Shown: positions 29 through 30,267 of the stretch, in pieces
Position numbering within the stretch: position 1 is the first letter of the stretch
Layout of the letters: the number at the start of each line of letters is the position of its first letter
DNA from: an uncultured Gammaproteobacteria bacterium
Lineage (GTDB): Bacteria > Patescibacteriota > Patescibacteriia > JAHIZJ01
Reading direction: 5' to 3'
NCBI GenBank assembly: GCA_964594455.1
Contig: CAZQLY010000001.1
Span: forward strand, 97 to 64,096
DNA length: 64,000 nt
Position numbers and translations under genes: made by a program
The notes under the pieces: generated by a model
The model's input: only the letters and a program-made list of their open reading frames with translations
The model's database searches: none
Told to the model about the DNA's origin: nothing

Positions 29-340
29 ATGCACACAAATTCACATCTAAGATCGCCGGCACTAGCCTATAGGGCTTTGGGCAGTGAAAGACGCTTGTAT
101 ATTTTGGAATTATTGTCTGAACGTAAATATACTTGTGGAGAATTGTCTGATAAACTGTCTATTACTATGCCAGCCATTTCTAAACATTTGAATTTATTAA
201 TTAGAGCAGGTTTTGCTAAAGGGAAACGCGAAGGAGCATCAGTTAAGTTTAAAATAGAGAATGATTATAATATTGAGATGATTAAGGATACTTACAACCT
301 TTTAACTAAAAGGTTTAAAATAGTGGATAAACCATATTGA
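29..340 (+). CDS. ArsR/SmtB-family HTH transcriptional regulator
   Basis: 103-aa ORF. HTH segment '...YTCGELSDKLSITMPAISKHLNLLIRAGFA...' is typical of ArsR family. The 3' end is part of a 75-bp direct repeat. Confidence 0.6.
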   Translation: MHTNSHLRSPALAYRALGSERRLYILELLSERKYTCGELSDKLSITMPAISKHLNLLIRAGFAKGKREGASVKFKIENDYNIEMIKDTYNLLTKRFKIVDKPY

Positions 341-370
341 CCAGGAAGGAGTGAAAGGAATAAAATATTG
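296..370 (+). repeat. 75-bp direct repeat copy 1 (copy 2 at 988-1062, 1 mismatch), contains palindrome ccttttaactaaaagg
   Basis: aaccttttaactaaaaggtttaaaa(t/c)agtggataaaccatattgaccaggaaggagtgaaaggaataaaatat occurs twice. Confidence 0.8.
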
Positions 371-407
371 TATTGCCGCATTGTAGGTGCTGAATGATTA
401 GTGTAAA

Positions 408-950: not shown

Positions 951-1169
951 ATTTATAAGCAAGAGTTGAGGGGTATTCGTTTTTAAACCTTTTAACTAAA
1001 AGGTTTAAAACAGTGGATAAACCATATTGACCAGGAAGGAGTGAAAGGAATAAAATATAGTTGAAAGAGACGGGCTTTCCCCGCATCAAGTGCGGGATAA
1101 ACTAGGCTCGTTCTTTTCATTGTGAGTTGGTGTTCACTTGGCAATTCTGCTGAAAAGGAGGTATCTGAA

Positions 1170-2093
1170 ATGAAAGGCAATACCTGGCTCGGTCCGCCCA
1201 CGATCCTGCTTCTCATCCTCGGCCTGTGTGTCGTCCTCTCAGGCTGTGGGGATGAAGGGAATGAAGTCACTGGAGTTGAAACCGAAGAGATCACTGAGCT
1301 TCAATTGATTTCCGAGGAAGAGGCTCGAGACGTTGTTTATGTCGCGGGAATCGATGAGGAACAGATCGTCTATTTCGATGTTGTTCCTTATGATCTATCT
1401 GGTTCCAGTGAATTCGAGGTAGCGTGGATTGCTGTCATCAACGCAGATGAACAGTTCTTGGGTACGTTTGTTAATGCGTTCACAGGAGAATTGTTGTCTG
1501 TGAATACAAATGTGCCCGAGAGGATATCTGCACGGCTTGATGACCTTGGCCTGAACGAGGAGTCTAAGAAACTCCGAGGCATCAATCACTATGAGAGTTA
1601 TCCCTGGGGCTATGATTTGCCTACGCCGTTTGGTAATCACCGACTGACCTGTGGCTATGGTTGCGGATATCATACTGGTTCGAACCATTACGCTGTTGAC
1701 CTTACCCTGAGTCACGGTGAGTGTGTTCCCGCACCAGGCTCTGGTTGGTGTATGTTTGCCGGCGATCGCGGAGATGGATATGGCCGTCAGGTTATTATCT
1801 TAGGTGGTCAGGCCAATGGCTCCAACCGGTACGTTTACCGTATGGCTCACTTCAGCTCGATCTCCGTTGTTCCCGGTTGGTGGATCGACAAGGGTAGAGG
1901 GGTAGGAGCCGCGGGTTGTACTGGCAATTGCACGGGGACGCATGTGCACTTCTCAATACACAGAGGGTATTACTCTGGGGGGCGCATTTATGGTAATAGT
2001 GTTCCTCTGGATCGCTGGCCCGGCCCGAACGATCGGGTGGACTACTTCAACCGCAATAGCACTTGGCAGTTTTCTTTCAATTACTGCCACTAG
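1170..2093 (+). CDS. M23 family metallopeptidase lipoprotein (LytM-like peptidoglycan endopeptidase)
   Basis: RBS AAAGGAGG 6 nt upstream of ATG 1170. Lipobox LSGC. M23 motifs HYAVDL (HxxxD) and THVHFSIH (HxH). G+C visibly far above flanks. Confidence 0.75.
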   Translation: MKGNTWLGPPTILLLILGLCVVLSGCGDEGNEVTGVETEEITELQLISEEEARDVVYVAGIDEEQIVYFDVVPYDLSGSSEFEVAWIAVINADEQFLGTFVNAFTGELLSVNTNVPERISARLDDLGLNEESKKLRGINHYESYPWGYDLPTPFGNHRLTCGYGCGYHTGSNHYAVDLTLSHGECVPAPGSGWCMFAGDRGDGYGRQVIILGGQANGSNRYVYRMAHFSSISVVPGWWIDKGRGVGAAGCTGNCTGTHVHFSIHRGYYSGGRIYGNSVPLDRWPGPNDRVDYFNRNSTWQFSFNYCH

Positions 2094-2190
2094 ACTTCGG
2101 GGATAGGGAGAGTTAAACTCCCTATCCCTGACAATTTTATTTTGATGTATAATGAATTTAGATGAACAATAATCATTAAGTGAAAAAACG

Positions 2191-2685
2191 ATGAAAAAAA
2201 CAATCTATCTCTCAATTATTATCATCCTCGCAACAGCAGGGTTTAATCCTGGGACAGCTCAAGCTGATGTGGCTGATTATAACGGGAGCATCCTCCTAGA
2301 CGTTGAACGTCACGGTGAGGCATATTATATTTACCAAGGTTATAAGCATTACTTAGGCAGACCTGATCAAGCTTTTGAGATAATGAGGCGATTATCGTTG
2401 GGGATATCCGAAGAAAATTTTAACAATGGGTTTAGACAGGTAAACGATGTTTGGCAGATTTATCGTATAGTTGATTCTAGTTTATTTCCTTATATTCAGG
2501 GCCGGATTATTCTGCGACCGCACTCCCACGGTGAAGCTTATTATGTGACACCTGGTTTAGCTGCTGGTAATGGCTATTCAGCTGAGTATCTTGGCCGGCC
2601 ATATGATGCTTTTCAGATAATGACGAAGTATGGTCTTGGTGCGCGTTCGGAATTTATTGATTCAATACCGGATGGGAGTTTATAG
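2191..2685 (+). CDS. secreted protein with two internal repeats (HGEAYY...YLGRP..AF.IM)
   Basis: Signal peptide then duplicated ~45-aa module. No family recognised. Confidence 0.5.
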   Translation: MKKTIYLSIIIILATAGFNPGTAQADVADYNGSILLDVERHGEAYYIYQGYKHYLGRPDQAFEIMRRLSLGISEENFNNGFRQVNDVWQIYRIVDSSLFPYIQGRIILRPHSHGEAYYVTPGLAAGNGYSAEYLGRPYDAFQIMTKYGLGARSEFIDSIPDGSL

Positions 2686-2790
2686 TTAAATACCCTTTTC
2701 GCCATAAGACTTGATCATTAACAATGATATTTGTTTTATTTGCCGTGAATGCAAAAATGTGCTATAGTATCTTCTCAGGAGGGGCATTTC

Positions 2791-2871
2791 ATGGATATGA
2801 AGAAATTAACCCGAAAAACACAAAGCCAAACAAAAAAGGTTAACCAAGCTAGCCTTTCGCGACCATTGTAG
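2791..2871 (+). CDS. 26-aa basic mini-ORF (MDMKKLTRKTQSQTKKVNQASLSRPL), leader-peptide-like
   Basis: Extended -10 TGnTATAGT (2760-2768). RBS CAGGAGGGG 6 nt upstream. Stop codon lies inside an intrinsic terminator hairpin. 32 nt upstream of the next gene. Confidence 0.3.
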   Translation: MDMKKLTRKTQSQTKKVNQASLSRPL

Positions 2872-2887
2872 TAGTGGTCGTTTTTTA
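2860..2887 (+). terminator. intrinsic terminator / attenuator hairpin (cgacca-ttgtagtag-tggtcg + TTTTTT)
   Basis: 6-bp GC-containing stem followed by T6. Overlaps the mini-ORF stop codon. Confidence 0.5.
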
Positions 2888-2902
2888 ATTTGAGGACGGG
2901 AA

Positions 2903-3571
2903 ATGGATATACACGGAATTATACTTTTAATTATTGCTGCTTTAGAGCTAATATTATTGCTTTATTTACTTTTTACTCGCTCAAAAGGGCATATTATATA
3001 TGCGTTTACCATATTTACGGTTGGGGTTATTTTTTGGGTGATGGGGAATGGTCTTTATCGTTTGGTAAAAACTAATGAGTTAGCATTTTTATGGATAGAT
3101 ATAAATCAATTTGCAGCCATGGTCATCGCGGTAGGATTGGTATATCTGTCGTTATCTTTTCCTTATTTAGAAAAAAGGATAACCAAAATAATACTGGCAG
3201 TGTGGGTTTTTATTTTGTTTGTTTTTGCGTACTTATTGTTTTTTACAGACTCTGTAATAAAAGGTGTATCTGGTCCAATCAGCGATCGTTTTGCTGAGAA
3301 AGGCTCGTTGTACCATATGTATGCGATAGTGTTTTTACTTATGTTTGTTTGGGCATTTGTTAACTTTTTTAAAAAGTACGGGCGAACCGCAGGTGTACAA
3401 AAGTGGCAAGTAGGAGTTCTGTCTGTAGGTTTAATTGGATCAGCAATCTTTGGCACTCTGTTTGATTTATTCCTGCCTTGGTTTGGCGGCCCTCAATATT
3501 TTTATCTGGGACCAGAATCTTCGGTCATATGGTTAGCTTTTACAGTCTATATTGTATTTAAAAAAGCTTAG
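2903..3571 (+). CDS. stand-alone multi-TM protein homologous to N-terminal 7TM sensor region of the downstream histidine kinase (paralog 1)
   Basis: 222 aa, about 6-7 TM helices. Pattern ...L(R/F)xxxKxxINxxFF...W(V)..(T)N... shared with paralogs 2/3 and residues 1-250 of the 6103-8859 kinase. Confidence 0.6.
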   Translation: MDIHGIILLIIAALELILLLYLLFTRSKGHIIYAFTIFTVGVIFWVMGNGLYRLVKTNELAFLWIDINQFAAMVIAVGLVYLSLSFPYLEKRITKIILAVWVFILFVFAYLLFFTDSVIKGVSGPISDRFAEKGSLYHMYAIVFLLMFVWAFVNFFKKYGRTAGVQKWQVGVLSVGLIGSAIFGTLFDLFLPWFGGPQYFYLGPESSVIWLAFTVYIVFKKA

Positions 3572-4195
3572 ATGGCTCTCCAAATCTACATTTTAATATT
3601 TGAGTCAATACTACTTTTACTCTTGGCTTTTTATGTTTGGCTGAGAAATCCAAAGCAAGCAATCAATATTTCATTTTTTGTAATGGTGCTGGGAGCGGCT
3701 GTTTGGGTTGGGACAAATGGTATTTTTGAAGAGACTCAGAGTCAGTTAATGGGAAGGCTCACTTTTACAGGTGCAATTATGATCGCTGCAGCATTCTTAT
3801 ATTTTTCATTTTTATTTCCTTACAAAGCTCGTTTTGTTAAATGGTATGTTCATTTATTATCAATAGTTCCTGCTGTTGTGCTTAATGCAGTTTTGTTTAC
3901 CTCTGATTTATTCGTGGGTGGAGTTATCTCTGAGGACACTATGGAACAAGGGCCTTTTTATCATGTGTTTGCGGTTTATTTTTTGATTATGTGGGCTTGG
4001 GGGATTTATAATTTAGTAGAAAAGTACAAAAGAGCAGACGGACTACATTACTGGCAATTAAAAAACACTTTTTATGCTTTAAGTGTTTCACTATTAGCAG
4101 GTGTTACTACCAATTTAGTAATGCCGTGGTTGTTTCACATACAATATTATGGTTGGGTCGGGCCAATGTTCTCAATAGTGTTTTTTGGTTCATAA
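3572..4195 (+). CDS. stand-alone 7TM sensor-domain paralog 2
   Basis: 207 aa. Near-identical to paralog 3 over WLRNPKQAINISFFVMV. Shares C-terminal motif HYWQLKNTFYALS...GWVGPMFSIVFFG. Confidence 0.6.
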   Translation: MALQIYILIFESILLLLLAFYVWLRNPKQAINISFFVMVLGAAVWVGTNGIFEETQSQLMGRLTFTGAIMIAAAFLYFSFLFPYKARFVKWYVHLLSIVPAVVLNAVLFTSDLFVGGVISEDTMEQGPFYHVFAVYFLIMWAWGIYNLVEKYKRADGLHYWQLKNTFYALSVSLLAGVTTNLVMPWLFHIQYYGWVGPMFSIVFFGS

Positions 4196-4223
4196 GCTAT
4201 ATACTGTTTAAGAAAAACGTTTA

Positions 4224-4880
4224 ATGGGATTGATTAATTACATTTTAATATTCGAAGCTATTTTACTTCTGTTTCTTGCTTTTTATGTTTGGTTGAGGAA
4301 CCCGAAACAGGCAATTAATATTTCTTTCTTTGTTATGGTTTTCGGATCGGCTATTTGGGTATTTAGTAATGCTACTGATTATGTTTATGAGAAACTATTT
4401 TTAACACAATTTACTTACATAGGAGCCATACTAATAGCTTCGGGGTTCTATTATTTTTCTTATTACTTCCCTTATAGAAGAAGTAGTATGAATATGATTT
4501 TAAGCTGGTTTGTGAATATTATCTCAGTTTTCTTGATAGCAAGTTTGTTTATTAACAATCTTTTTTATAGCAATATTAATTATAATGACGTTAATTCAAA
4601 GGTTTTTGCCGGACCCACATTTCACATATTTAATATATTTTTTATCGTTGTTTGGATCCTGGGAATTATAAATTTGATACTTAAATACAAAATTGCAGAT
4701 GGAATACACCATTGGCAGATAAAAAACACATTTTTTGCATTAAGCATATCGCTAGTAGCTGGAACAACAACGAATCTAATTTTGCCTTGGATATTTGATG
4801 TATGGACATTTGGCTGGGTCGGGCCTATGTTTTCAATCGTCTTTTTTGGGTTTTTGAGTTATATATTGTTTAAGAAGTAG
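4224..4880 (+). CDS. stand-alone 7TM sensor-domain paralog 3
   Basis: 218 aa tandem paralog. Confidence 0.6.
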   Translation: MGLINYILIFEAILLLFLAFYVWLRNPKQAINISFFVMVFGSAIWVFSNATDYVYEKLFLTQFTYIGAILIASGFYYFSYYFPYRRSSMNMILSWFVNIISVFLIASLFINNLFYSNINYNDVNSKVFAGPTFHIFNIFFIVVWILGIINLILKYKIADGIHHWQIKNTFFALSISLVAGTTTNLILPWIFDVWTFGWVGPMFSIVFFGFLSYILFKK

Positions 4881-4906
4881 TTATAAAACGGATATTAATA
4901 TTCTTT

Positions 4907-6097
4907 ATGAAGTATCTTAAAAAAAGCATTAGAGAGATTGATCACTTAGGAAATTATCCGATTATTGATACAATAGAATCCCCGATTGGTCCAAAGGTAA
5001 AAATAAAAGGAAGAGAGTATTTATTATTCAGTTCGAATAGTTATTTAGGCATTACTACAAATCAACGGGTTGTAAAATCTTCAATTAATGCAATAAAAAA
5101 ATATGGTACTGGCTCTGGTTCATCAAGAGTTGTTGCGGGTACATTTGATATTCACACCAAACTTGAAAATGAGATCGCGCTTTTCAAAGAAAAAGAAGCG
5201 GCCATGGTATTAACCAGCGGTTATTCTACAAATGTAAGTTTAATTCCTGCATTAGCCAATGTATTCTCTATATATGGAAAGAAACCAGAAATTGAAACAG
5301 TGATCTTTAGTGACAGACTTAATCACGCTAGTATAATTGATGGAATAAAATTATCCGGTTGTAGGGTAATTGTATACAATCACCGTGATATTATGTCTTT
5401 GGAAAAAGCACTTGAGGAAAACAAGGGTTGTCGCAAATTAATAATAACTGATAGTATTTTTAGCATGGATGGAGACATTGCACCTTTAGATAAAATAGTA
5501 GAATTAAAAAAAAGATACAGTGCCCTATTAATGATAGATGAAGCACACGCAACCGGAGTATTTGGTAAACATGGAAAAGGTATTGCTAACTTTTATAATG
5601 TTAGTAAAGATGTTGATATTATAATGGGCACATTAAGTAAATCTTTCGGGTCTATAGGAGCCTATGTTGCAGGTGATAATGATATTATTCGTTTATTAAA
5701 AGTATCTGTTAGAGGTTATGTTTTTTCTACAGCTCTTACACCACCAGATATTTCTACCAGTAGGGAAGTAATTGCAATACTTAATGAGAATCCCGATTAT
5801 CCTAAAAAGATATTAGATTTAGCTAATTATTTAAGAGTAGGATTAAACAAAATTGGGTTTAACACACTAGGTAGCGAAACACAAATAGTGCCAATACTCA
5901 TTGGTGATATGATCAAATCTTTAAAGTTTCAATCAGAATTAAAAAAAAGAAGAATTATTGCGCCATGTATTCAGTGGCCTGCAGTAGAAAGAGATAAGAG
6001 TAGAATACGTTTTTCGGTAATATTGACACACACAAAAGAAGATATTGACTTTTTAATAAAATCGTGTAGAGAAGTCAAAAACAAACTAAATATTTAA
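4907..6097 (+). CDS. PLP-dependent alpha-oxoamine synthase family acyltransferase (AONS/KBL/SPT/CqsA-like)
   Basis: 396 aa. PLP-lysine motif GTLSKSFGSIGAYVAG. Also ...DEAHATGVFG.. and N-terminal substrate region typical of the class II aminotransferase / alpha-oxoamine synthase family. Confidence 0.75.
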   Translation: MKYLKKSIREIDHLGNYPIIDTIESPIGPKVKIKGREYLLFSSNSYLGITTNQRVVKSSINAIKKYGTGSGSSRVVAGTFDIHTKLENEIALFKEKEAAMVLTSGYSTNVSLIPALANVFSIYGKKPEIETVIFSDRLNHASIIDGIKLSGCRVIVYNHRDIMSLEKALEENKGCRKLIITDSIFSMDGDIAPLDKIVELKKRYSALLMIDEAHATGVFGKHGKGIANFYNVSKDVDIIMGTLSKSFGSIGAYVAGDNDIIRLLKVSVRGYVFSTALTPPDISTSREVIAILNENPDYPKKILDLANYLRVGLNKIGFNTLGSETQIVPILIGDMIKSLKFQSELKKRRIIAPCIQWPAVERDKSRIRFSVILTHTKEDIDFLIKSCREVKNKLNI

Positions 6098-6102
6098 AAT
6101 CT

Positions 6103-8859
6103 ATGTTAAGTGTATTATTAATTATTGCCGGTTGTGGAGATATAATTTTAGGTTTGATTGTTTTGCGTGCGGGATACAAGAAGAAATCAAATGTATTGTT
6201 TTTTATTTTTGCATCTATTATTGGGATTTGGGTCTTAACAAATTTTCTAATTGGATATGGTGAAGATATATTTTGGTTAAAACTAGCATATGCTCTGGGG
6301 CCATTTATTTATTCATTGAGTTTAATATGGATACTCAATTTTCTATTTGGAAAAGTAAGAAGAACTTATCTTATCGCTATTTTAGTTATTTCTTTATCTT
6401 TTTCTGTATTATCATTTATTAATGGTTATATTGTTAAGGATGTTAATGAGTTATATGTGGGAGGGTTTGAGGGCGAACTGGGAATCTTTTTTCTTCCATA
6501 TACGGTTTTTTCTATTTTTATGACAGTACTAAATGTTGTTGCTGTAATATACGGAGTAAAAAAAAGTAAAGGACAAAGAAAACAGCAACTAGTATATGTA
6601 CTGTCCGGCTATTCTATTTTTGGTATAGGCGCTTTATTTGCTTCATTTATTTTGCCGTCTTTTGGATTCACTAAGTATATACCGTTAGATTCTGTGTCAT
6701 CGTTGGCTTTTTTAGGATTTACATCATACGCAATAGTAAGACATCGTTTATTAGATATTCGCATCATAGTTACAAGATCAGTAGTTTACTTCTTCCTGAT
6801 CCTGTTTGTTACTCTGGCGTTTACTACGATGACATTCTTGACCGGTTTGTTTATCCAAGAACTCGGCGGGTCTCAGACCTTTACTACGATATTGGTTTCA
6901 CTGATTATCGTATTTGGATTTGATCCGTTGAAACGCTTGCTGGGTCGGATCACAGATGCGGTATTCTTTAAGAGTGAGATTAACTACACAAAAGCCACCC
7001 AGATATTGACTCAGATGATCAGCACCAAGATTGAGCTGGACGAGGTTATTAATTCTACCAATGAGAAGCTAAAGGATATATTAAAAATCAAAGAAGCTAA
7101 TATTCTAATTCAAACAAAGAATAAGCAATCCTTTGTTTTGCGTAAAAACGGCAATAGCAATGGTCGTTCCTTGAGACTGGACTCAAAAAGCTCCTTAGCA
7201 GCCTATGTAATAAATAGGCAAAAGATATCCGTCTTGGAAGAATTGGAGCGCCGGATATCTGATACTACCAATGATCGGGAGCGTAAGAAGCTGGAACGCT
7301 CGCGCTCGGACTTCGAAGCGCTGGGTGCGGATGTGGTGGCGCCGATCATCCTGGAGGGTGAGGTGACCGGCCTTTTTGTGCTCGGCGGCAAGCGCTCTGG
7401 CGATACTTACAACAATAATGATCTAAATATTCTCAACACCCTGGGGCCTTTGATGGGTTCGGCGATCGAGAAATCCAGGCTTTATGATGAGGTGAAATCA
7501 TTTGGTGAAAAGATGAAAGTCGAGGTGGAAAGAGCCACAGCTGATCTCCAGCTGGCCAATGTCGAGCTGAAGAATCGCAATGTTTATTTGAATGCCTTGC
7601 AGAATATCGGCAATATCATCACGCGCTCGCTTGATTTCAAAAAAGTTACCCAGACCATTGCCGATGGCATATCCACTGAGCTGGGCTATATCGGCGGCGT
7701 GATTATTCTGAAAGGCGAAGGCGAGACTACTCATCCGGCTGCGATGACTATGACTACGCTGACCCGAGCCGCCTTGAAACTCTTGCCCAAGAAGCTTCCT
7801 GAGTTCAAGGGCAAACTTTCTGACAAAGATCTGGCCACTGAAGCCATGCGTTCCGGGACTACCCAGATCAGTGACAAGCTGGCTGATTTCTTGAATCCGC
7901 CCATTCCCAAAGCTATTTGCGCAGCCATGCAGAAGTTGGTCAAAGCCCAGACCATCATTGCCGTGCCCATCCCTTCAGAGGTCGCTATCATCGGCAGTAT
8001 TGTTTTCGTCATCCAGAAGCCGAAGAGGGAAGTATCTGAAGACGAAGTCCAGATGATGAAAGCCTTGGCTGACCAGATGGGTATCGTGACCAGAAACGTG
8101 CAGTTGGTCGAAGAACTGCGCGATACAAATTTGGAACTAGAAAAAGCTAACGAGCATTTAAAAGAATTGGACGAAGCCAAAAACGAATTTATATCTATTG
8201 CCTCGCACCAATTGCGTACGCCTTTGACTGGAATCAAAGGCTATCTAGCCATGATTGTGGATGGCGACTTTGGCAAGGTACCGGCCCAAATGTTTGATAT
8301 TTTGAAACAAGTATTGGAAGCTTCGAAGCGCATGATCCGTTTGGTTAACCTATTCTTGAACATTACCAAGATCGAAGCTGGCAAATTCACCCTGGAAAAG
8401 AAACCAACTGACATAGTAGAATTAGTCCAATCGGAAATAACTGAATTGATCAAAGTAGCCGAAGATAAGGGCTTGAAAATAGAATTCAAAAAACCAAAAA
8501 CTAAACTGCCTGATGTTACGATCGACGGTGATAAACTAAAAGACGTGGTGCTGAATTTGATCGACAATGCTATCAAGTATACAGACAAAGGAAAGATAAC
8601 TGTTTCAGTGGAGAAACTGAACGGTGATGTGCGCGTCTCTGTCAAAGATACCGGCCGGGGTATTCCGCATGATGATGCCAAAAAACTTTTCTCCAAATTC
8701 GTACGTGGTGAGGGTATAGCTCAAGTTCAGCCAGATGGCTCTGGACTAGGTCTTTATATCGCTAAACGCATAGTTGATGCTCACAAGGGCGAGATTTGGG
8801 TGGAGAGCGAAGGATTGGGTAAGGGTTCAACGTTTATCTTCACAATCCCAGCGAAATAG
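6103..8859 (+). CDS. sensor histidine kinase (N-terminal 7TM domain, GAF-like domains, HisKA, HATPase_c; no receiver)
   Basis: 918 aa. H-box SIASHQLRTPLTGIKGY. N/G boxes LIDNAIKYT, DTGRGIP, GSGLGLYIAKRIV. Confidence 0.85.
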   Translation: MLSVLLIIAGCGDIILGLIVLRAGYKKKSNVLFFIFASIIGIWVLTNFLIGYGEDIFWLKLAYALGPFIYSLSLIWILNFLFGKVRRTYLIAILVISLSFSVLSFINGYIVKDVNELYVGGFEGELGIFFLPYTVFSIFMTVLNVVAVIYGVKKSKGQRKQQLVYVLSGYSIFGIGALFASFILPSFGFTKYIPLDSVSSLAFLGFTSYAIVRHRLLDIRIIVTRSVVYFFLILFVTLAFTTMTFLTGLFIQELGGSQTFTTILVSLIIVFGFDPLKRLLGRITDAVFFKSEINYTKATQILTQMISTKIELDEVINSTNEKLKDILKIKEANILIQTKNKQSFVLRKNGNSNGRSLRLDSKSSLAAYVINRQKISVLEELERRISDTTNDRERKKLERSRSDFEALGADVVAPIILEGEVTGLFVLGGKRSGDTYNNNDLNILNTLGPLMGSAIEKSRLYDEVKSFGEKMKVEVERATADLQLANVELKNRNVYLNALQNIGNIITRSLDFKKVTQTIADGISTELGYIGGVIILKGEGETTHPAAMTMTTLTRAALKLLPKKLPEFKGKLSDKDLATEAMRSGTTQISDKLADFLNPPIPKAICAAMQKLVKAQTIIAVPIPSEVAIIGSIVFVIQKPKREVSEDEVQMMKALADQMGIVTRNVQLVEELRDTNLELEKANEHLKELDEAKNEFISIASHQLRTPLTGIKGYLAMIVDGDFGKVPAQMFDILKQVLEASKRMIRLVNLFLNITKIEAGKFTLEKKPTDIVELVQSEITELIKVAEDKGLKIEFKKPKTKLPDVTIDGDKLKDVVLNLIDNAIKYTDKGKITVSVEKLNGDVRVSVKDTGRGIPHDDAKKLFSKFVRGEGIAQVQPDGSGLGLYIAKRIVDAHKGEIWVESEGLGKGSTFIFTIPAK

Positions 8860-8962
8860 CACTGTTTAAGGTACCTCTCCACAAGGTCGAGGAATATTTA
8901 TTTTAATATTTCTCGACCGAGAGAGTGAAACGAACGAGTGGAGAGATACCTAATAGTTTCTC

Positions 8963-8992
8963 TTGACACCTGAAATAGAAATACGCTAAAAT
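8963..8992 (+). promoter_or_regulatory. sigma70-like promoter (TTGACA-18-TAAAAT) for the 9095 gene
   Basis: Consensus hexamers read directly. Confidence 0.4.
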
Positions 8993-9094
8993 ACCGAATG
9001 TGTAGGAAAGACGTAAAAAAATACAATAGAATCAGCCAAAAAAAGGGAAAGACGGGACCCAACGGAGTTACCGTCGTTTATTTATTAAAAAGAC

Positions 9095-10711
9095 ATGAAA
9101 GACAATAATCCACAGGGTCTATCCACAATCGCGCTAGTATTAATCACAATAGTTGTGATCGCATCCGCGGGTTTGATTTGGTGGGAATTCAATAAACAGG
9201 AAACCGAAGAAGACAACGTGGTTATTAATAGCCAAACCAATACTACAGAAAATGTTAATTCTTCTGTTAATACCTCAGATTGGCTGACTTATACAAATGA
9301 TGAGTATGGGTATTCACTTAATTACCCAAGCACGTGGTTTATGGAAGAGCGAGTAATAACTTATGAAAATAATAATGTTGATCAGGCATATTGGTATATA
9401 AATATTACTCCCGAAAACCCAAGTCAGAGTGATATTCAAACACAGTTTGCCATCACTCTATTTAATGCCTTGTCAGACGAAGCACCTGATCAAACATTTC
9501 TACGCGTAACGGGTAAAGATATATCTAATCTGAATAAAGAAATAAAGAATGTTGATGGACTTGAAGGATATTATTACAAAGATGTGCCTGCACTTACTCC
9601 ATACAATATGATACTAATTGAAAAAGATAATTTGTTATTTTCTTTAGAACAAGGAGAAATTTCAGAAGACGATTATTTCGATATTATCGATAACGTTCAG
9701 TTTATAGATAGTAATGTAGATACTTCTAGTTGGTTGATTTACACGAATGAGGAGTATGGGTACTCTTTTGAGTATCCACAGAACTATCAAGTGAAGGAAT
9801 TAGTAAATGTTGATGTAGAGGGGTATGTGAATTTAAGTAATAATGATGCAAGTATGAGTTTATATGTCATGGACGGACCGCTTGATCCTATGCATATCCA
9901 AGGTATATATGGAGAAAGGACAGCCGATGAAATAACTACGGTATCTGTTAGTCTCCAAACGGGATATCAATATCGTGAAGGAGATGCGGGGTGTGGTGGA
10001 GATAACGTCCAAACATCATTAACGAATGGCATGATATTAAAGATACAGTTTACTGAATGTATGGATACAACAAATATCCTGTATTCAAATATTGCTTTGC
10101 GCAATCAAATCTTATCAACATTTGTATTTTTTGATAGTTCAGTTGACGTTAATTCCATGTTAAACTCTAACACTAATTCCAATACAAGCAGTAATACAAA
10201 TTCAAGTAATACTAATGAATCAGAAAGCACGGGAGATAAATCATCTGAACCAGAAGATGAAGATATTAATGATTCGTCCTGGTCCGTCTATGAAAATGAT
10301 TTGAGGAAATTTAGGATACAGTATCCCGGTGGCTGGGAGGCTGTTGAGTATCAGGATTATACAGTGGGGTTTCAGCCAGAGGGGTGCTCGTATTATGAAA
10401 CTTATCCAAGCGATACAGCTTATCCGATTCATATTTCGTATAGTACGGATCATAAATCAATCCAATCTATTTTAAAAAACCACCCCACAGATTACTATGA
10501 TAAATATGAACTTGGCAACGTTACTGGTTATGGTATATACGAAGATTATGATGATATTGAACAGGTTTATGCACCGGTGCCCGCAAGCCGAACAGTATTT
10601 ATACAAGGGCAGTATTATGTCGAGACCGAGGATGATTGTACAATGGACAAGGAATATTTTCGTAATACATATTTATCTATGTTAGAGACATTTGAAGTCA
10701 TTGAGGATTAA
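9095..10711 (+). CDS. membrane-anchored exported protein with N/S/T-rich linkers and two copies of a conserved W..Y.N.EYG(Y/F)S..YP module
   Basis: 538 aa. N-terminal TM helix. Repeats DTSDWLTYTNDEYGYSLNYP and DTSSWLIYTNEEYGYSFEYP. Low-complexity SNTNSNTSSNTNSSNTNESE. Confidence 0.55.
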   Translation: MKDNNPQGLSTIALVLITIVVIASAGLIWWEFNKQETEEDNVVINSQTNTTENVNSSVNTSDWLTYTNDEYGYSLNYPSTWFMEERVITYENNNVDQAYWYINITPENPSQSDIQTQFAITLFNALSDEAPDQTFLRVTGKDISNLNKEIKNVDGLEGYYYKDVPALTPYNMILIEKDNLLFSLEQGEISEDDYFDIIDNVQFIDSNVDTSSWLIYTNEEYGYSFEYPQNYQVKELVNVDVEGYVNLSNNDASMSLYVMDGPLDPMHIQGIYGERTADEITTVSVSLQTGYQYREGDAGCGGDNVQTSLTNGMILKIQFTECMDTTNILYSNIALRNQILSTFVFFDSSVDVNSMLNSNTNSNTSSNTNSSNTNESESTGDKSSEPEDEDINDSSWSVYENDLRKFRIQYPGGWEAVEYQDYTVGFQPEGCSYYETYPSDTAYPIHISYSTDHKSIQSILKNHPTDYYDKYELGNVTGYGIYEDYDDIEQVYAPVPASRTVFIQGQYYVETEDDCTMDKEYFRNTYLSMLETFEVIED

Positions 10712-10750
10712 TATAATGATCAATTATTCAATAAATAAGGTATAAAAACC

Positions 10751-11500
10751 ATGGTAGAAAACATTAACCAATCATCACCCAAAGGTAATAAAACAGGCCT
10801 AATCATCCTAATCCTGGCTGCTGTCATTGTAATCGCTGGAGGTTTATGGTACGCCTTGGCTGGAACTGATGAAAATACCAACAATGAAAATAATACCAAC
10901 ACTGTAGCCAATGAGAATGCAAACACGAATGTTAATACCAACACTGCAGCAAACACCAACGCAGAAACAAATTCCAATACCAATACTGCAACCAACACCA
11001 ATTCCTCTGTGGATACTTCTGATTGGCTGACTTATACGAATGAGGAGTATGGGTTTAGTTTTAAATATCCACAGGATTGGAAGCAAGAATATATATTTGA
11101 AAACGATAGTACGAAAACTGTATATGAGAAACCGCTTCAATATTCACTTATTACAAGTGCTGATGGAAATTATGAGCTTGTATTGGGTGTAAAACGTACA
11201 AACGATAAGGGAACAATTTACTATAGAACTGGTATTGGCGCAGGAGACATCAGTGAAGGTGATCCAATAATAATTATGAATACGAGCATAAGTACATGGA
11301 AGCGCGTTTTTGAGGACAAAGTTGTAGAAATTTTCCTTTTTCCAGTTGAAGAGGGAGTTTCACCAAACATAATAAACAATCACGAAGTGATAGCTAGCTT
11401 TAGTATAGTGAATAGTGATACCTTAAATTCACCTAATCTGGTTGATACTAACGAGTATAGAATAGTGCTTTCAATACTACAGTCATTGGAAGTATCATGA
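10751..11500 (+). CDS. paralog of the 9095 family (TM anchor, NTNT-rich linker, W-module)
   Basis: 249 aa. Module VDTSDWLTYTNEEYGFSFKYPQDW. Confidence 0.55.
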   Translation: MVENINQSSPKGNKTGLIILILAAVIVIAGGLWYALAGTDENTNNENNTNTVANENANTNVNTNTAANTNAETNSNTNTATNTNSSVDTSDWLTYTNEEYGFSFKYPQDWKQEYIFENDSTKTVYEKPLQYSLITSADGNYELVLGVKRTNDKGTIYYRTGIGAGDISEGDPIIIMNTSISTWKRVFEDKVVEIFLFPVEEGVSPNIINNHEVIASFSIVNSDTLNSPNLVDTNEYRIVLSILQSLEVS

Positions 11501-11583
11501 GGACCCTCTTATTAGCTAGATAGATATACTATCTAGCTAATTTGGAGGCTTTGTTCTTTCACAACCAAAAAAGGAGTCTTACG

Positions 11584-12162
11584 ATGAAAGGGACTCTGTT
11601 TATTCTAGGGTTGCTGGTCCTGGTACTTTGTTTTCCGGTACCATCAATGGCTGGTGATGAGTCGTGTTGTGGACATTCATCTCCAGGTAACCCTTACCTT
11701 TGCTATGGAGATGGAAATTGTACCTGGTGGGCGTGGCACTGCCGTCAAGATCTACCAGCATGGAGTGGTAATGCTGCAACTTGGCTAGCTAATGCTGAAA
11801 ACGATGACATCGACACTGGAACGACACCACTAGTGGGAAGCATCGCTTGTTTCCCAAATATGGCCGGAGGTGCAGGACACGTTGCCTGTGTTACAGCAGT
11901 ACACCTCGACGGTTCATTTGATGTAACGGAAATGAATTGTTGGCCAGGGTTTAATGGTGTTGATGCAAGGCTCTACTCATCGGGAAGCGCTACAGGCTTC
12001 ATCTACGGCGGCCCGGTCAACATGTATAGTCTCACCTACGCCGGTCAGTCTCCGACAGATCCATCCGGGATTCTGAAGCTCCGTCCTCTGGAGACCGTGA
12101 ACTGCTGGCTGGATGTGAATGTATTGAGCGGTAGTGCCCCGATCTCCAGCATGATACAATAA
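11584..12162 (+). CDS. secreted CHAP-domain amidase/peptidase (peptidoglycan hydrolase)
   Basis: RBS AAAAGGAG upstream. Signal peptide. CHAP catalytic Cys context GNCTWWAWHCRQD and His GAGHVACVTAV. High G+C. Confidence 0.65.
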   Translation: MKGTLFILGLLVLVLCFPVPSMAGDESCCGHSSPGNPYLCYGDGNCTWWAWHCRQDLPAWSGNAATWLANAENDDIDTGTTPLVGSIACFPNMAGGAGHVACVTAVHLDGSFDVTEMNCWPGFNGVDARLYSSGSATGFIYGGPVNMYSLTYAGQSPTDPSGILKLRPLETVNCWLDVNVLSGSAPISSMIQ

Positions 12163-12282
12163 CTCTGTGCACAACTCCTCTTGACCCTTAATTCTCTAAG
12201 ATTTAACATTAAAGTATATGAGAAAGACGGGTCTCAAGAGAGTTCCGTTTTATTTATTTAATAAAGTTATTAAGAAACACCT

Positions 12283-12984
12283 ATGAACAACCTAAACCAA
12301 AAAGGGTTATCAACAACAACTTTAACTATTATTATCCTGGCAATTATTATTATTGCCGGAGGTTTATGGTACGCTCTTTCCGGAACCAATGACAATACCA
12401 ACAATTCTAATAACACCAACACTGTAGCAAATGGGAATGCAAACATGAATGTGAATACCAGCACTGCGGTAAACACCAACACAGAAACAAATTCCAATAC
12501 TAATACTTCAACCAACACCAATTCGTCTGTTGATACTTCGGATTGGGAACTATACGTTAACTCTAATCATAATTTTAGCCTAAAATTTCCCAGAGACTGG
12601 GGGTTTATCAGTGAATTTGATGGTAGTTTTAATCCTGATATTTTGAGCGCATCCTATATGACAACAAGTTCGTTTGTTACGGGTACAGAAGATTCTGGAC
12701 TAATGTTGTCATTTACATTTGGCAGTGGTAAAACGATAAACGATATATTGAATGAGGTTCATACGACCTCTGAAGGAAGTAGCAAACTGGTTATAAGTCA
12801 TAAAGAAGTAACTTTATCCTCAGGTACATCTACTACAGTGGTTAAATACGATCCTACGATAAAAGGACATACAACAGAGTATTTGTTTCAAACTGACTCT
12901 GGTGTGATTGCATTGGGTCTTTTATCAGAGAACGATGAAACTGTTATGGTTTTGAATACCTTTTTATTGGTTAGTAACCCATAA
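12283..12984 (+). CDS. paralog of the 9095/10751 family
   Basis: 233 aa. N-terminus and linker nearly identical at the DNA level to the 10751 gene. Module VDTSDWELYVNSNHNFSLKFPRDW. Confidence 0.55.
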   Translation: MNNLNQKGLSTTTLTIIILAIIIIAGGLWYALSGTNDNTNNSNNTNTVANGNANMNVNTSTAVNTNTETNSNTNTSTNTNSSVDTSDWELYVNSNHNFSLKFPRDWGFISEFDGSFNPDILSASYMTTSSFVTGTEDSGLMLSFTFGSGKTINDILNEVHTTSEGSSKLVISHKEVTLSSGTSTTVVKYDPTIKGHTTEYLFQTDSGVIALGLLSENDETVMVLNTFLLVSNP

Positions 12985-13063
12985 AGCGATTCATATCGTT
13001 TTATGTATGTATAGAGCTCATTAACAATTAGCCCGTAGAAGAGCAACAGGAAAGGAGAGAATC

Positions 13064-15379
13064 ATGAAGTGGTTTATTTTCGCAGGCGTTATTATGGGTT
13101 CGTTATTCGTTGGAATCCAGGAATGCAGTGGTTACGCTTGTCCATTGATTGAGATGGAGCTTGTTCAGGGGTTTGGTGGCACGCACGTAGGTGCAGATTA
13201 CGATGCAGATGCTGGTGACCACGTCTATGCCCTTGCTGATGGTAGGGTGTGCTTCTACAAAAGTGATGCAAGTTGTATGGGGGGAGGTAATGGCAAGGAC
13301 TGTGATTGTGTGGATGGGGAAGTAATCTTTGTTCGTCATCAAAAACCCAGTGGGACCTACTTCATCGCGATGTATGGTCATATTAAGAACGTCCCGTCTG
13401 AATTTGCTGCAATCACGCAATACACTGAGAGTGGGCCCATTGTAGAAGCAGGGGAACAGATTGCTGAGATTGGTGTTTATGCTCCTTGTAGGGACTGTAG
13501 TCCTCGTTGCGATCACCTTCATCTGGGGATCTGGGATAGCGAAAACCAAATGCCATCTAGTGGATGGGGATATGGTAATGCATGCTATAAAAATCCTTCA
13601 GGTTGCTGGGTTGCTCCTGAGTCATTTCTAGGAACCTGTACTGATCCTCAGGTCCTCACCTTCCTTACTTCTTTCGTCGACTTCACTGTCCAGGAAGAAG
13701 GACCGTACTTTCCCAACCAGGTGATTCATTGCACTATGAGATGGAAGAATGAGGGAAGTGCCACTTGGTCAAGCACTCCGGGTGACAACTACGTTGAATT
13801 GGGTTCGTGTAACATCAACCAGAACATCGTACCTAGCTGGCTCTATGATTCTAGCTTGGGTTGGATCAGCAACTTGGTGCCGTGTACATTCGATGGAGAC
13901 GATGTCGGCCCAGGCGAGACTGCGACATTTGCTTTCCCTGGCAAGATTCCGAGTGATGCTCAAGCAGGACAGACGCCGGTTTACTTCGGCGCTGTCTACG
14001 ATGCGGCTATCATGGAGGAATGGGAAGGTAACGGTATCACTCTGACAATCGTCGAAACTCAGCCTGCCCCTGAAAACACCCCTGACGTCGTTCGGCTGAG
14101 GCCGGATGGAGAAGGGGGGTGTGATTTCCGGGTAGCAGCCAGTGATGGAGATGATGCCTACGACTATGGTTCCTGGCTGGCCATTGATTGGATGCCGGAT
14201 ACCTGGTTTGTGGCAGATGTGCACAACGATGGTCTGGATGATCTGGTCTTGGTCCGGGGCGATGACATCTACGTGTCTAAGTCCTATGACGACCATTTCC
14301 GAGACTCGCCATTGCTCTGGAAGTCCAATTGGGGCAATCCGTCCGGCACCTACGGCTATCTGCCGTGGATGTACTACGGAGACAGCCGGGTTGATCTGAT
14401 CCATTACCGGGCAGTCAGCGCCACCCAGGTCAGATGGTGGGGACTGAAGTCGATGGACACCTACTATTCGGATTTGGGTGTGTTGGTCAGCAATGCTGGC
14501 AACCAGAGTGATTACTTTTTCAGCGTTGGTTCATTCCATGGGCAACGCCGGGAGGATATCATCTTTGGCCGGAGACTTTCTGGGTCAAACCAGCTGCACT
14601 ACCGGGTCAGTGAGCAGATTACGGATGGCAGTTTCCAGGATAACGGATGGTGGGATGGCAATTTCGGGTTCTACTATTCTCGCATCCTGGTGGCTGACAT
14701 TGACGGCGATGACTATGACGATCTGGTGGGCGTGACTCATCAGGGCAGCGATGTCATGCGGGTAACCTGGGGCCGGAATACTCACAGCGAATCGTTCACT
14801 TATGGTTCTCTTCTGAGTTCCGACTTTGGCAACGGTGACAGCCAGTACTTCATTGCTGACGTTGACCAAGATGGCCACGATGATCTCATCTATGTCGGTG
14901 GCAACGGCAATATCTATTGGGCCAGGACCTATCACGATGGATCCGCCTGGAGACTTTCTTCTCGAAACACCTGGATCAACTACTTTGCCCAGGGATCGGC
15001 TGATGAGTTCAGGTTCGGCAACGTGACCGATCAGATCCCAAGCGGTCAGGGCAGGTTTACTCCTGAGAATCCGGGAGTGAGCTTGAAGGAAGTGGCGACA
15101 ACCACTCAGCCGGGTGTTTCCAGACTGCAGCTGTCAGCTTCACCCAACCCCACCAACCTCTCCACGGTCATTGCCTATGCCTTGCCGCAAGCCGGCCAGG
15201 TGAATCTGAGTGTCTACAACGTGGCTGGACGTTTGGTCAAGACGTTGGTCGACTGCCGACAGCCAGCGGGCGAGTACAGCGTTACTTGGGACTCAAAGCA
15301 GGAGGACTTTGGGATCTACTTCTGCCGCCTCAGCTTGGGGAACGATCTTTCCTCTCGGAAAATCGTTCTGCTGAAGTGA
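13064..15379 (+). CDS. secreted multidomain protein: N-terminal M23 peptidase, FG-GAP/VCBS-like repeats, C-terminal T9SS-type (Por_Secre_tail / FlgD-Ig-like) sorting domain
   Basis: RBS AAAGGAGAG upstream. M23 motifs HVGADYD and HLHLGIWD. Repeats D.H/D.DG.DDL(V/I). C-terminus ...NVAGRLVKTLVD...YSVTWDS...GIYFCRLSLGN...KIVLLK matches the T9SS CTD consensus. About 57% G+C. Confidence 0.7.
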   Translation: MKWFIFAGVIMGSLFVGIQECSGYACPLIEMELVQGFGGTHVGADYDADAGDHVYALADGRVCFYKSDASCMGGGNGKDCDCVDGEVIFVRHQKPSGTYFIAMYGHIKNVPSEFAAITQYTESGPIVEAGEQIAEIGVYAPCRDCSPRCDHLHLGIWDSENQMPSSGWGYGNACYKNPSGCWVAPESFLGTCTDPQVLTFLTSFVDFTVQEEGPYFPNQVIHCTMRWKNEGSATWSSTPGDNYVELGSCNINQNIVPSWLYDSSLGWISNLVPCTFDGDDVGPGETATFAFPGKIPSDAQAGQTPVYFGAVYDAAIMEEWEGNGITLTIVETQPAPENTPDVVRLRPDGEGGCDFRVAASDGDDAYDYGSWLAIDWMPDTWFVADVHNDGLDDLVLVRGDDIYVSKSYDDHFRDSPLLWKSNWGNPSGTYGYLPWMYYGDSRVDLIHYRAVSATQVRWWGLKSMDTYYSDLGVLVSNAGNQSDYFFSVGSFHGQRREDIIFGRRLSGSNQLHYRVSEQITDGSFQDNGWWDGNFGFYYSRILVADIDGDDYDDLVGVTHQGSDVMRVTWGRNTHSESFTYGSLLSSDFGNGDSQYFIADVDQDGHDDLIYVGGNGNIYWARTYHDGSAWRLSSRNTWINYFAQGSADEFRFGNVTDQIPSGQGRFTPENPGVSLKEVATTTQPGVSRLQLSASPNPTNLSTVIAYALPQAGQVNLSVYNVAGRLVKTLVDCRQPAGEYSVTWDSKQEDFGIYFCRLSLGNDLSSRKIVLLK

Positions 15380-29390: not shown

Positions 29391-29433
29391 GAACCACGCA
29401 TTGTGATTAGCTTGGGTGGTTCTTTTTGTTTTT
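29391..29433 (+). terminator. intrinsic terminator (gaaccac...gtggttc + T5)
   Basis: 7-bp stem then T-run after flavodoxin. Confidence 0.5.
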
Positions 29434-29461
29434 GAGTGGCGCGCAAAAAAAGGAGGGTCGC

Positions 29462-30021: not shown

Positions 30022-30267
30022 ATGAGAGCCATTGTTGATGTAGTCAGAATCGAGAGACGTATCGTGGTTAAAGTAGAGGGCGGTAGTGACACATCAACCG
30101 TCGAGGAAGTACTTCGTCAGACTGGCCTAGAATTCAATCCCGACACGCATCAGATCGTCAATCCGGATGAAGGCCAGTTCGAACTGGACGGGTTGGTCAT
30201 GATGGATGAACGTATCTTGGTCATACCCAAGGAGCCGGATCAGGACGAAGGTGATGGCGCAGTCTAA
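30022..30267 (+). CDS. high-GC small acidic hypothetical protein
   Basis: RBS AAGGAGGGG. 81 aa. Followed by terminator gaggtgaa...ttcacctc+T5 (30282-30309). Confidence 0.4.
   Translation: MRAIVDVVRIERRIVVKVEGGSDTSTVEEVLRQTGLEFNPDTHQIVNPDEGQFELDGLVMMDERILVIPKEPDQDEGDGAV

Follow-up and report, generated by a model that had tools for sequence, protein, structure and literature searches.

Members of the Patescibacteria are believed to spend their lives attached to other cells, yet the molecules with which they breach or remodel a partner's wall are largely unknown. Here we describe three genes for predicted peptidoglycan hydrolases in a 64-kb stretch of contig CAZQLY010000001.1 (64,000 nucleotides, called the window below): an M23 lipoprotein, a small CHAP protein and a 771-aa protein with an M23 head. 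An earlier note on this DNA, drawn from the sequence alone, had proposed that the three genes were acquired from donors of higher G+C content. With moderate confidence, we favor a different reading, in which the region is a variable cell-surface neighborhood of a Patescibacteria (candidate phyla radiation, CPR) genome carrying a shuffled, laterally exchanged family of cassettes that each combine a hydrolase with a partner.

Among described enzymes, the M23 endopeptidases LytM, lysostaphin and zoocin A resemble the window's M23 proteins in fold, in their zinc ligands, in being secreted (a prediction here) and in joining a catalytic head to a separate wall-binding module. Latent M23 enzymes additionally share an N-terminal α/β domain with the window lipoprotein. 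However, the described enzymes are targeted by SH3b, target recognition (TRD) or LysM domains, while here an immunoglobulin (Ig)-like domain, an FG-GAP propeller and a C-terminal domain (CTD) of the type IX secretion system (T9SS) type are found. Unlike in lysostaphin-type systems, no FemABX-type immunity gene is adjacent, and a transmembrane (TM)-anchored PsbP-like partner stands in its place. The window CHAP protein has PcsB as its best NCBIfam match and shares with it a secretion signal and a CHAP domain with Cys and His. Yet it reaches 45 bits against a cutoff of 450 and is not an equivalog, it has no coiled-coil region, and it is truncated from a CHAP plus Ig-like (plus propeller and CTD) architecture seen in the relatives P0108 and P0002 (below, P numbers denote proteins and L numbers denote loci).

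The CTD of the 771-aa protein is like that of T9SS type A cargo from Bacteroidota and the Fibrobacterota, Chlorobiota and Bacteroidota (FCB) group: it scores above the TIGR04183 cutoff, is modelled as a β-sandwich and bears the usual motifs. The host differs, since its closest named relative is a Patescibacteria genome. Patescibacteria are not known to have an outer membrane or a T9SS, and no T9SS genes lie within the 64-kb window. Because the machinery is not expected in this group and only 64 kb are in view, we do not file the 771-aa protein as functional T9SS cargo; the domain has probably been reused, for example for surface attachment.

The locus also recalls polymorphic toxins and effector-immunity cassettes, with swappable heads on a conserved scaffold, a small partner gene, fast divergence and mobility. 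In contrast to effector-immunity cassettes, the partner here lies upstream and is membrane-anchored, and an inhibitory role for it is hypothetical; and whereas the C-terminal tip varies in classical polymorphic toxins, here it is the N-terminal head. The lectin spokes of umbrella toxins are a further parallel, in that the propeller-bearing model of the 771-aa protein best matches UmbA4 bound to a target-cell wall polymer, but dedicated secretion-system or particle components like those of umbrella and polymorphic toxins were not seen here. Finally, the variable lipoproteins of Mycoplasma (vlp, vsp, vsa) place a conserved 5′ region (promoter, untranslated region, Shine-Dalgarno site and prolipoprotein signal) on unrelated mature parts, as does the lipoprotein leader described below, which occurs in tandem in L010. 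They differ in that no homopolymer tract, invertible element or site-specific recombinase is seen beside the copies here, in that the mature parts are enzymes rather than repetitive antigens, and in that the window has one full leader plus a 76-nt partial copy. Literature searches returned no description of the hydrolase-partner module, of T9SS-type domains or of Shine-Dalgarno usage in Patescibacteria that is relevant here.

Domains, catalytic motifs and predicted export of the hydrolases

The three hydrolase genes lie on the plus strand as follows (GC3, G+C content at third codon positions).

1170–2093, plus strand: predicted lipoprotein M23 endopeptidase, 307 aa; signal peptide and lipobox, α/β N-domain at residues ~49–125, M23 domain at ~157–277
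11584–12162, plus strand: predicted secreted CHAP amidase/endopeptidase, 192 aa; Pfam CHAP
13064–13663, plus strand: signal peptide and M23 head of the 771-aa protein; Pfam M23, native synonymous codon usage
13664–15379, plus strand: Ig-like domain (~200–330), FG-GAP-type β-propeller (~352–640) and T9SS type A CTD (~689–770) of the 771-aa protein; GC3-rich

The earlier note had read these genes as exported cell-wall hydrolases, and both their coordinates and the predicted function agree with our searches. Peptidase_M23 (Pfam PF01551, cutoff 28.7) scores 53.5 bits in 1170–2093 and 30.2 bits in 13064–15379, and CHAP (Pfam PF05257, cutoff 26) scores 58.1 bits in 11584–12162. The zinc ligands HxxxD and HxH, invariant across the family alignments, are present as HYAVD and HVH in the lipoprotein and as HVGAD and HLH in the 771-aa protein. 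The catalytic residues of the CHAP protein are likewise intact (Cys in GNCTWWAW, His in AGHVACV). Thus, membership of the enzymes in the M23 and CHAP families is clear, and peptidoglycan hydrolysis is predicted from it. All three proteins have a hydrophobic N-terminus, and the signal peptide of the lipoprotein ends in the lipobox LSGC, MKGNTWLGPPTILLLILGLCVVLSGC (consensus [LVI][ASTVI][GAS]C; judged by eye).

In the C-terminal part of the 771-aa protein, the T9SS type A sorting domain TIGR04183 (NCBIfam) reaches 31.9 bits against a cutoff of 23, and the last 80 residues bear the usual motifs PNPFN ... YF.RL ... K..LLK. Pfam PF18962 scores 25.3 bits, slightly under its cutoff of 27, and FG-GAP_3, FlgD_ig and Por_Secre_tail also fall slightly under their Pfam cutoffs.

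Structural models agree with these assignments. The AlphaFold2 (AF2) model of the lipoprotein (predicted local distance difference test, pLDDT, 74) has an α/β N-domain followed by an M23 domain, and Foldseek placed the latter with EnpA, LytM and lysostaphin (target TM-scores 0.65–0.77, sequence identity 17–32%). The AF2 model of the 771-aa protein (pLDDT 78) consists of a signal helix, M23 head, Ig-like domain, β-propeller and C-terminal β-sandwich, the last with a pLDDT of ~90. Its best PDB match, ahead by five orders of magnitude, was UmbA4, a lectin of the Streptomyces umbrella toxin, bound to teichuronic acid (E = 8e-12, from a global alignment of a multi-domain model with a TM-score of ~0.3). 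Photorhabdus propeller lectins, integrin-type FG-GAP propellers and the T9SS proteins PorZ and PorU followed.

A membrane-anchored partner gene precedes the hydrolases

The CHAP gene and the 771-aa gene each follow a gene for a TM-anchored protein, and a related gene lies further upstream.

10751–11500, plus strand: partner gene of the CHAP hydrolase, 249 aa; TM anchor, Asn/Thr-rich stalk, PsbP_2-like domain (Pfam PsbP_2, 31 bits)
12283–12984, plus strand: partner gene of the 771-aa hydrolase, 233 aa; TM anchor, Asn/Thr-rich stalk, extracytoplasmic domain
9095–10711, plus strand: PsbP_2-like exported protein, 538 aa; duplicated domain (Pfam PsbP_2, 35.6 bits), repeats D2 and D4

Partner proteins are anchored by an N-terminal TM segment, which is followed by an Asn/Thr-rich stalk and then by a PsbP_2-like or related extracytoplasmic domain that opens with VDTSDW.TY. 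The N-termini of the two partners are duplicates of one another (repeat D1), and the 538-aa gene is a paralogue of both. The same type of partner stands upstream of a hydrolase in L005, L006, L007, L011, L014 and L018, and the window partner at 12283–12984 is 61% identical to the one in L005. The eight partner-hydrolase pairs, from seven genomes with a background G+C of 0.42–0.60, each set a conserved small partner beside a variable secreted effector whose heads and modules are swapped, an arrangement that characterizes effector-immunity or polymorphic effector cassettes. In all eight pairs the hydrolase is the G+C-richer gene, by 0.08–0.20 in G+C and 0.12–0.32 in GC3. Since the step recurs in every pair, we conclude that the step at the 5′ edge is a conserved property of a co-inherited pair and that the gene upstream is not an unrelated flank.

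As a separate observation, region 55–157 of the 12283–12984 protein is weakly like the cellulase module CBM46 (PDB 5xrc, E = 2e-4; Pfam CBM46, E = 7.5e-4), a score that the Asn/Thr-rich stalk may inflate.

Synteny, independent assemblies and exchange of modules

Relatives were sought from the histidine kinase gene between the lipoprotein and the two cassettes.

6103–8859, plus strand: 7TM-GAF-GAF-HisKA-HATPase histidine kinase (Pfam); synteny anchor of the neighborhood

A scan of a genome collection anchored on this gene found one true relative, L011 ('MAG: Patescibacteria group bacterium'), with identities of 64–65% for the kinase and 55% for an α/β hydrolase. What else the window encodes is also in keeping with a CPR-type genome: lower glycolysis, PTAC and acetate kinase, a DUF4012 protein, and large insertions in the RNase P RNA. 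Additionally, GCA_016294925.1 (L008/L010) is syntenic, with 72% identity in the kinase, 54–74% in three stand-alone 7TM genes and 84% in a 164-aa gene. A metagenome scan with a 6-sequence alignment returned 3 loci, too few for statistics.

A classical genomic island would be absent from the syntenic position in relatives, yet counterparts of the hydrolases occur in both genomes. In GCA_016294925.1, the orthologous kinase is followed by the CHAP homologue P0108 (63% identical, 290 aa, 53% G+C), and three genes of ~51% G+C with strong Shine-Dalgarno (SD) sites occupy the position of the M23 lipoprotein. L011 has an M23-Big_1-CTD gene (1029 aa, ~49% G+C) directly upstream of the α/β hydrolase orthologue, which is the position of the window's 771-aa gene, but this counterpart is only 25–27% identical to the window hydrolase while the flanks are 55–65% identical. 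L005 and L015, from separate samples, carry a 54% G+C M23-...-CTD gene amid 34% G+C genes, between RecJ and RNase P.

The sharp G+C steps, in a metagenome-assembled contig, raise the question of whether the islands are artefacts of assembly or binning, that is, chimeric joins of low- and higher-G+C organisms. We consider this very improbable. An independent Logan contig from run SRR7048224 (L001) agrees at 100% identity with window positions 1029–4270, a stretch that takes in the M23 lipoprotein gene together with its 3′ junction and the 141 nt that precede it. In an exact look-up among encoding contigs, only the M23 lipoprotein was found (in L001), and the CHAP and 771-aa proteins had no match. 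The same alternation of high and low G+C also recurs in separate samples or assemblies (L005 and L015, L008 and L010, L011, L018), and these independent assemblies together with L001 argue strongly against a chimeric join. Moreover, G+C changes inside single intact open reading frames (ORFs), namely those of the kinase and the 771-aa protein, and a low-G+C promoter element is joined to a high-G+C signal peptide both in the window and in L010.

Comparison between relatives revealed extensive exchange of parts. The 771-aa protein matches the L005 hydrolase only in the M23 head (66.5%) and the CTD (47%). Its residues 199–771 have their best match (52% identity) in P0002 of L006, a CHAP-headed protein whose contig is uniformly 60% G+C and also encodes a kinase homologue. 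Indeed, the closest full-length relatives of this C-terminal part all lie on higher-G+C DNA (L006, 60%; L014, 52%). Similarly, the Ig module of the CHAP protein P0108 is 73% identical to that of the M23 protein P0003. The window CHAP protein breaks off after the first 42 residues of an Ig-like module that relatives have in full, indicating that the gene is a truncated derivative with its catalytic domain intact. Best-hit patterns of the hydrolase modules are mosaic. Both the M23 head (66.5%) and the partner of the 771-aa gene (61%) are closer to L005 than any of eight syntenic housekeeping genes (40–61%).

The module also occupies differing locations: beside PGK in the window, at the matching position in L011 (as judged by the conserved α/β-hydrolase neighbor) and after FtsEX in L018 (GCA_964415025.1). 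In L014 (1519–2631 and 14204–17100) and on the contig of P0255, it lies beside genes for a Replic_Relax relaxase, a tyrosine integrase and a large serine recombinase. The same gene trio in two unrelated contigs suggests carriage on an integrative mobilisable element. From these comparisons, the hydrolases likely represent a pool of modules that is exchanged among genomes of differing G+C and recombined at domain borders.

A simpler explanation would be that the three genes are vertically inherited housekeeping autolysins whose G+C excess reflects amino-acid composition and selection (strong SD sites, preferred codons), with no lateral exchange. Their positions are conserved in relatives, and their best NCBIfam matches include PcsB, MepM, ShyA and DipM, although all are far under cutoff. 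FtsEX controls M23/EnvC-type and CHAP/PcsB-type hydrolases in other bacteria, and the L018 module (5053–8656) comes immediately after two FtsE/FtsX pairs, of which one has an FtsX_ECD domain. We nevertheless find this explanation rather unlikely, given the swapping of heads and modules between genes, the strong divergence of the L011 counterpart between conserved flanks, the differing loci beside mobile-element genes and the M23 head that is closer to L005 than is any syntenic housekeeping gene.

Only part of the G+C excess is synonymous

The earlier note put the three genes at about 55–58% G+C, in contrast to flanks of about 35–40%. The elevation is real, but that figure was too high: whole-gene G+C is 0.512–0.513 for the M23 lipoprotein, 0.506–0.510 for the CHAP gene and 0.522 for the 771-aa gene, or about +2 standard deviations (sd) from the window mean of 0.42 (600-bp windows, sd 0.048). 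Values of 0.54–0.58 are reached only in some 300-bp sub-windows. The transitions are indeed sharp, with steps within ~60–120 bp at the gene edges. The flank genes, at 30–37% G+C, sit below the core genes, with GC3 of 0.21–0.32 against 0.40 in the core (z −2.5 to −8). Nor are the hydrolases the only high-G+C stretches. Seven segments reach at least 50% G+C in 600-bp windows, among them 7201–8100 inside the histidine kinase gene and the non-hydrolase gene 53948–54571. The latter (207 aa, just after a tRNA-Asn gene) has the highest G+C of the window (57%), a GC3 of 0.67 and a perfect AAGGAGG SD site, but it matches no Pfam or NCBIfam family and lacks an evident signal peptide; its high G+C and SD site indicate that the pattern is not confined to hydrolases.

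To separate codon choice from amino-acid composition, we pooled the 11,977 codons of 27 core window genes into a usage table and re-drew from it the codons of each test region with its amino-acid sequence fixed. Observed and expected values were as follows.

1170–2093, M23 lipoprotein: G+C 0.513, expected 0.463; GC3 0.52, expected 0.40; z 4.5
11584–12162, whole CHAP gene: G+C 0.510, expected 0.492; GC3 0.45, expected 0.44; z 0.3
11584–11943, CHAP domain: G+C 0.486, expected 0.502; GC3 0.35, expected 0.44; z −2.2
11944–12162, last 73 codons of the CHAP gene: G+C 0.545, expected 0.468; GC3 0.62, expected 0.43; z 3.5
13064–13663, M23 head of the 771-aa protein: G+C 0.476, expected 0.476; GC3 0.40, expected 0.41; z −0.3
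13664–15379, remaining 572 codons of the 771-aa gene: G+C 0.539, expected 0.461; GC3 0.63, expected 0.41; z 11.1

Amino-acid composition alone lifts the expected G+C of the hydrolases to 0.46–0.49. It accounts for about half of the excess of the M23 lipoprotein and nearly all of that of the CHAP gene; in the CHAP domain and in the M23 head of the 771-aa gene, it explains the excess entirely. Among the hydrolases, the synonymous excess is limited to 13664–15379, 11944–12162 and, more mildly, 1170–2093. The codon-usage check that the earlier note had proposed therefore gives a divided answer, with an excess in these three regions and none in the CHAP domain or the M23 head. The boundaries of the anomalous stretches fall within genes, and of the three catalytic domains, two look native.

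These results bear directly on the acquisition proposed earlier, which in its strong form holds that three whole hydrolase genes were recently inserted from unrelated higher-G+C donors, each bringing its own SD site. The steps at the gene edges between G+C of 0.51–0.52 and flanks of 0.30–0.37 and the strong SD sites in an SD-poor genome fit such an event. So do the closest C-terminal relatives on DNA of 52–60% G+C and the T9SS-type CTD, which otherwise matches proteins of Zixibacteria, Ignavibacteria, Bacteroidota and Calditrichaeota. However, native GC3 in two of the three catalytic domains, anomalies that start inside genes, hydrolases at matching positions in relatives and an upstream flank that is itself a conserved partner gene all argue against it. 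Additionally, the best identity to a candidate donor is only 52–63%, which is too low for a recent transfer; the searches identified no donor from beyond the pool of this hydrolase family; and window 1–16.5 kb is free of integrase, transposase and tRNA genes. We judge whole-gene insertion improbable. What survives of the earlier proposal is the atypical composition, the signs of a mobile pool and the higher-G+C location of the closest C-terminal relatives. A phage origin is unsupported, since scans of viral contigs with all three proteins, which detect close relatives only, returned no match.

The histidine kinase gene shows that strong contrasts can exist within one gene. Its GC3 is 0.19–0.23 in the 7TM part, 0.57–0.62 in the GAF part and 0.42–0.47 in the catalytic part. 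The gradient is kept in three orthologues of only 65–72% identity (window 6103–8859; L008 6254–9022; L011 147–2930), at 0.14–0.23, 0.4–0.6 and 0.3–0.8, respectively. Because these orthologues keep the gradient and every partner-hydrolase pair keeps its step, a G+C contrast can be maintained without fresh transfer. Vertically inherited autolysins would gain from this persistence in orthologues that are saturated at synonymous sites, as they would from the native GC3 of the CHAP domain and the M23 head and from the high G+C already expected from amino-acid composition. The selection invoked by that explanation fares less well: the enolase gene, with an SD site and probably high expression, reaches a GC3 of only 0.44, so translational selection does not obviously give a GC3 of 0.6. 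On this basis, from a single such gene, we found no support for translational selection as the cause of the high GC3.

Strong Shine-Dalgarno sites mark the hydrolase class

Each hydrolase gene is preceded by a site of the AAGGAG type (AAGGAGG, AAGGAG and AAGGAG for the M23 lipoprotein, CHAP and 771-aa genes, respectively), 6–7 nt before the ATG. The two sites outside the lipoprotein leader are:

11571–11576, plus strand: SD site AAGGAG of the CHAP gene, 7 nt before the ATG; −8.4 kcal/mol
13052–13057, plus strand: SD site AAGGAG of the 771-aa gene, 6 nt before the ATG; −9.0 kcal/mol

We scored 44 window genes by the energy of the duplex with the anti-SD sequence. The M23 lipoprotein gene has the strongest value of the three hydrolase genes, at −13.1 kcal/mol. 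Energies of −6 kcal/mol or lower were found in only 4 of the 41 other genes (Fisher p = 0.003): enolase, 2903–3571, 40623–41180 and 53948–54571. The remaining 37 have A/T-rich upstream regions and no detectable SD site. Thus, the genome is SD-poor, and the earlier claim of canonical ribosome-binding sites before the hydrolases but mostly not before their neighbors holds.

The sites do not, however, identify the genes as foreign. The site of the 771-aa gene is conserved in L005 as AGAAGGAGAGAGAC-GTG, where the true GTG start of the hydrolase is preceded by the same SD sequence, AGAAGGAGAGA. A strong SD site was present in all five paired hydrolases scored (window CHAP, window 771-aa, L005, L014 and L018) and in none of four partner genes. 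Since the site is kept in the relatives checked, including those whose genome matches the G+C of the gene, it marks a class of gene and not foreign origin, a further point against whole-gene insertion.

A conserved leader precedes the M23 lipoprotein gene

The third hydrolase gene belongs to neither pair and has a leader of its own.

985–1169, plus strand: M23 lipoprotein leader; 22-bp perfect palindrome, promoter-like site, structured 5′ untranslated region (UTR), SD site
296–371, plus strand: first copy of the 76-nt palindrome and promoter element; direct repeat D5, 97% identical to 986–1061
29–340, plus strand: ArsR-family helix-turn-helix (HTH) regulator gene, 103 aa; Pfam HTH_5, 43.6 bits; next to the first palindrome copy
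2097–2131, plus strand: intrinsic-terminator-like hairpin with a 14-bp stem, directly after the M23 lipoprotein gene

The palindrome at 985–1006, AAACCTTTTAACTAAAAGGTTT, is perfect over 22 bp and is followed by a promoter-like site at 1027–1056 (TTGACC-18-TAAAAT) and by the SD site at 1155–1162, AAGGAGGT. An inner hairpin of the 5′ UTR differs between genomes by compensatory changes. The first copy of the 76-nt element has its own promoter-like TTGACC-18-TAAAAT at 337–366, upstream of the low-G+C gene 408–950, and is the only flanking repeat of the hydrolase region. The ~290-nt leader occurs three times in L010 (9797–10086, 11851–12140 and 13268–13557), with ~90% DNA identity to the window, and there precedes three unrelated mature domains. 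Family members outside the lineage carry other signal peptides. From its gene's position beside the first copy, the ArsR-family protein may bind the palindrome and act as a candidate regulator of the cassette. Upstream of the first leader cassette, L010 also has two identical 64-nt copies on the reverse strand that are tRNA-gene-like (9454–9517 and 9550–9613).

Proposed function and target of the cassettes

We propose that a cassette of two genes encodes, in order, a membrane-anchored stalk partner with a PsbP-like domain and a hydrolase that would be translated from its strong SD site and secreted. The hydrolase would carry an M23 or CHAP head, usually with an Ig-like module, a lectin-like FG-GAP propeller and a T9SS-type C-terminal β-sandwich. 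The M23 lipoprotein would be driven by the conserved leader of promoter, 5′ UTR, SD site and lipoprotein signal. Export would proceed through Sec, with lipidation of the lipoprotein enzyme; the propeller and Ig parts may bind a wall glycopolymer while the M23 or CHAP head cuts stem peptides or cross-links in peptidoglycan. The partner may anchor the enzyme at the surface or protect the producing cell in the manner of an immunity factor. The high G+C would have two sources, namely an amino-acid composition rich in Gly, Ala, Pro, Cys, Trp and Asp, and GC3-rich modules recombined in at domain boundaries from a pool shared with higher-G+C relatives.

As the target of these enzymes, we somewhat favor the wall of another cell, either host or competitor, over the cell's own wall. 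The indications are circumstantial and come from sequences and models: fast divergence at a fixed position, swapping of heads, a paired partner, a lectin-like domain, an association with mobile elements, and the 7TM receptor and kinase genes close by. An autolytic role is kept alive by the FtsEX neighbor in L018 and by the general need of walled cells for such enzymes. A more ambitious possibility, which we hold tentatively and regard as unlikely, is that this Patescibacteria lineage has an undescribed polymorphic system for attacking cell walls. Such a system would have swappable heads, a propeller that reads host polymers, a CTD that docks on a protective partner, exchange across G+C boundaries, and a shared leader under an ArsR-type regulator and a 7TM-receptor kinase.

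Several observations weigh against a laterally exchanged cassette family that draws on higher-G+C relatives. The L002 orthologue of the M23 lipoprotein has a near-native GC3 (0.40), a shorter family member in L016 has a GC3 of 0.42 where its neighbors have 0.44, and in L014 and L006 the GC3 of the hydrolase matches most neighbors. L006, L007 and L014 could belong to other phyla and not to higher-G+C relatives. The kinase gradient and the partner-hydrolase step show that a G+C difference can persist without fresh transfer, which leaves more than one possible source for the GC3 excess. The window holds a single full copy of the leader, besides the 76-nt partial one. The position after FtsEX in L018 fits a division autolysin, and some members of the family may be division hydrolases under FtsEX control. 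Lastly, the UmbA4 match is only a lead, and enzyme activity, export and target are all predictions.

The hydrolase-partner module with its lectin-like targeting domain nonetheless offers concrete candidates for enzymes of host interaction, and the paired partner offers a testable hypothesis of immunity or anchoring. Sharp G+C steps and SD sites are unreliable marks of foreign genes in this lineage, because steps occur inside single genes and persist between co-inherited neighbors, and amino-acid composition explains about half of the excess. Sorting domains of the T9SS type in a lineage where no T9SS is expected deserve a systematic survey.

Other features of the window

Other stretches of the window also have an unusual composition. 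Three small high-G+C ORFs without a family match (29426–29905, 30022–30267 and 39158–39616) stand where L005 has an M23-CTD module and another gene of 62% G+C; 29426–29905 encodes a probable lipoprotein (...GAVSC). On the minus strand, the ORF 39026–39619 was rejected as a real high-G+C gene since its translation looks spurious, and the plus-strand ORF 39158–39616 is the likelier gene. At the other extreme, the class I/II aminotransferase gene 4907–6097 has the lowest GC3 of the window (0.21, z = −7.9 against the core), and a relative has different genes at this place. With both features, it departs from the norm no less than the hydrolases do.

Upstream of the full 7TM-GAF kinase, three stand-alone HisKA_7TM genes (222, 207 and 218 aa) without kinase domains lie in tandem at 2903–4880. 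This arrangement is conserved in GCA_016294925.1, where the cluster also has an autoinducer-synthase/FeeM-like gene and a ThiF gene. Finally, the RNase P RNA (class A) at 30351–30894 is 544 nt long, against a model of 367 positions, owing to large insertions.

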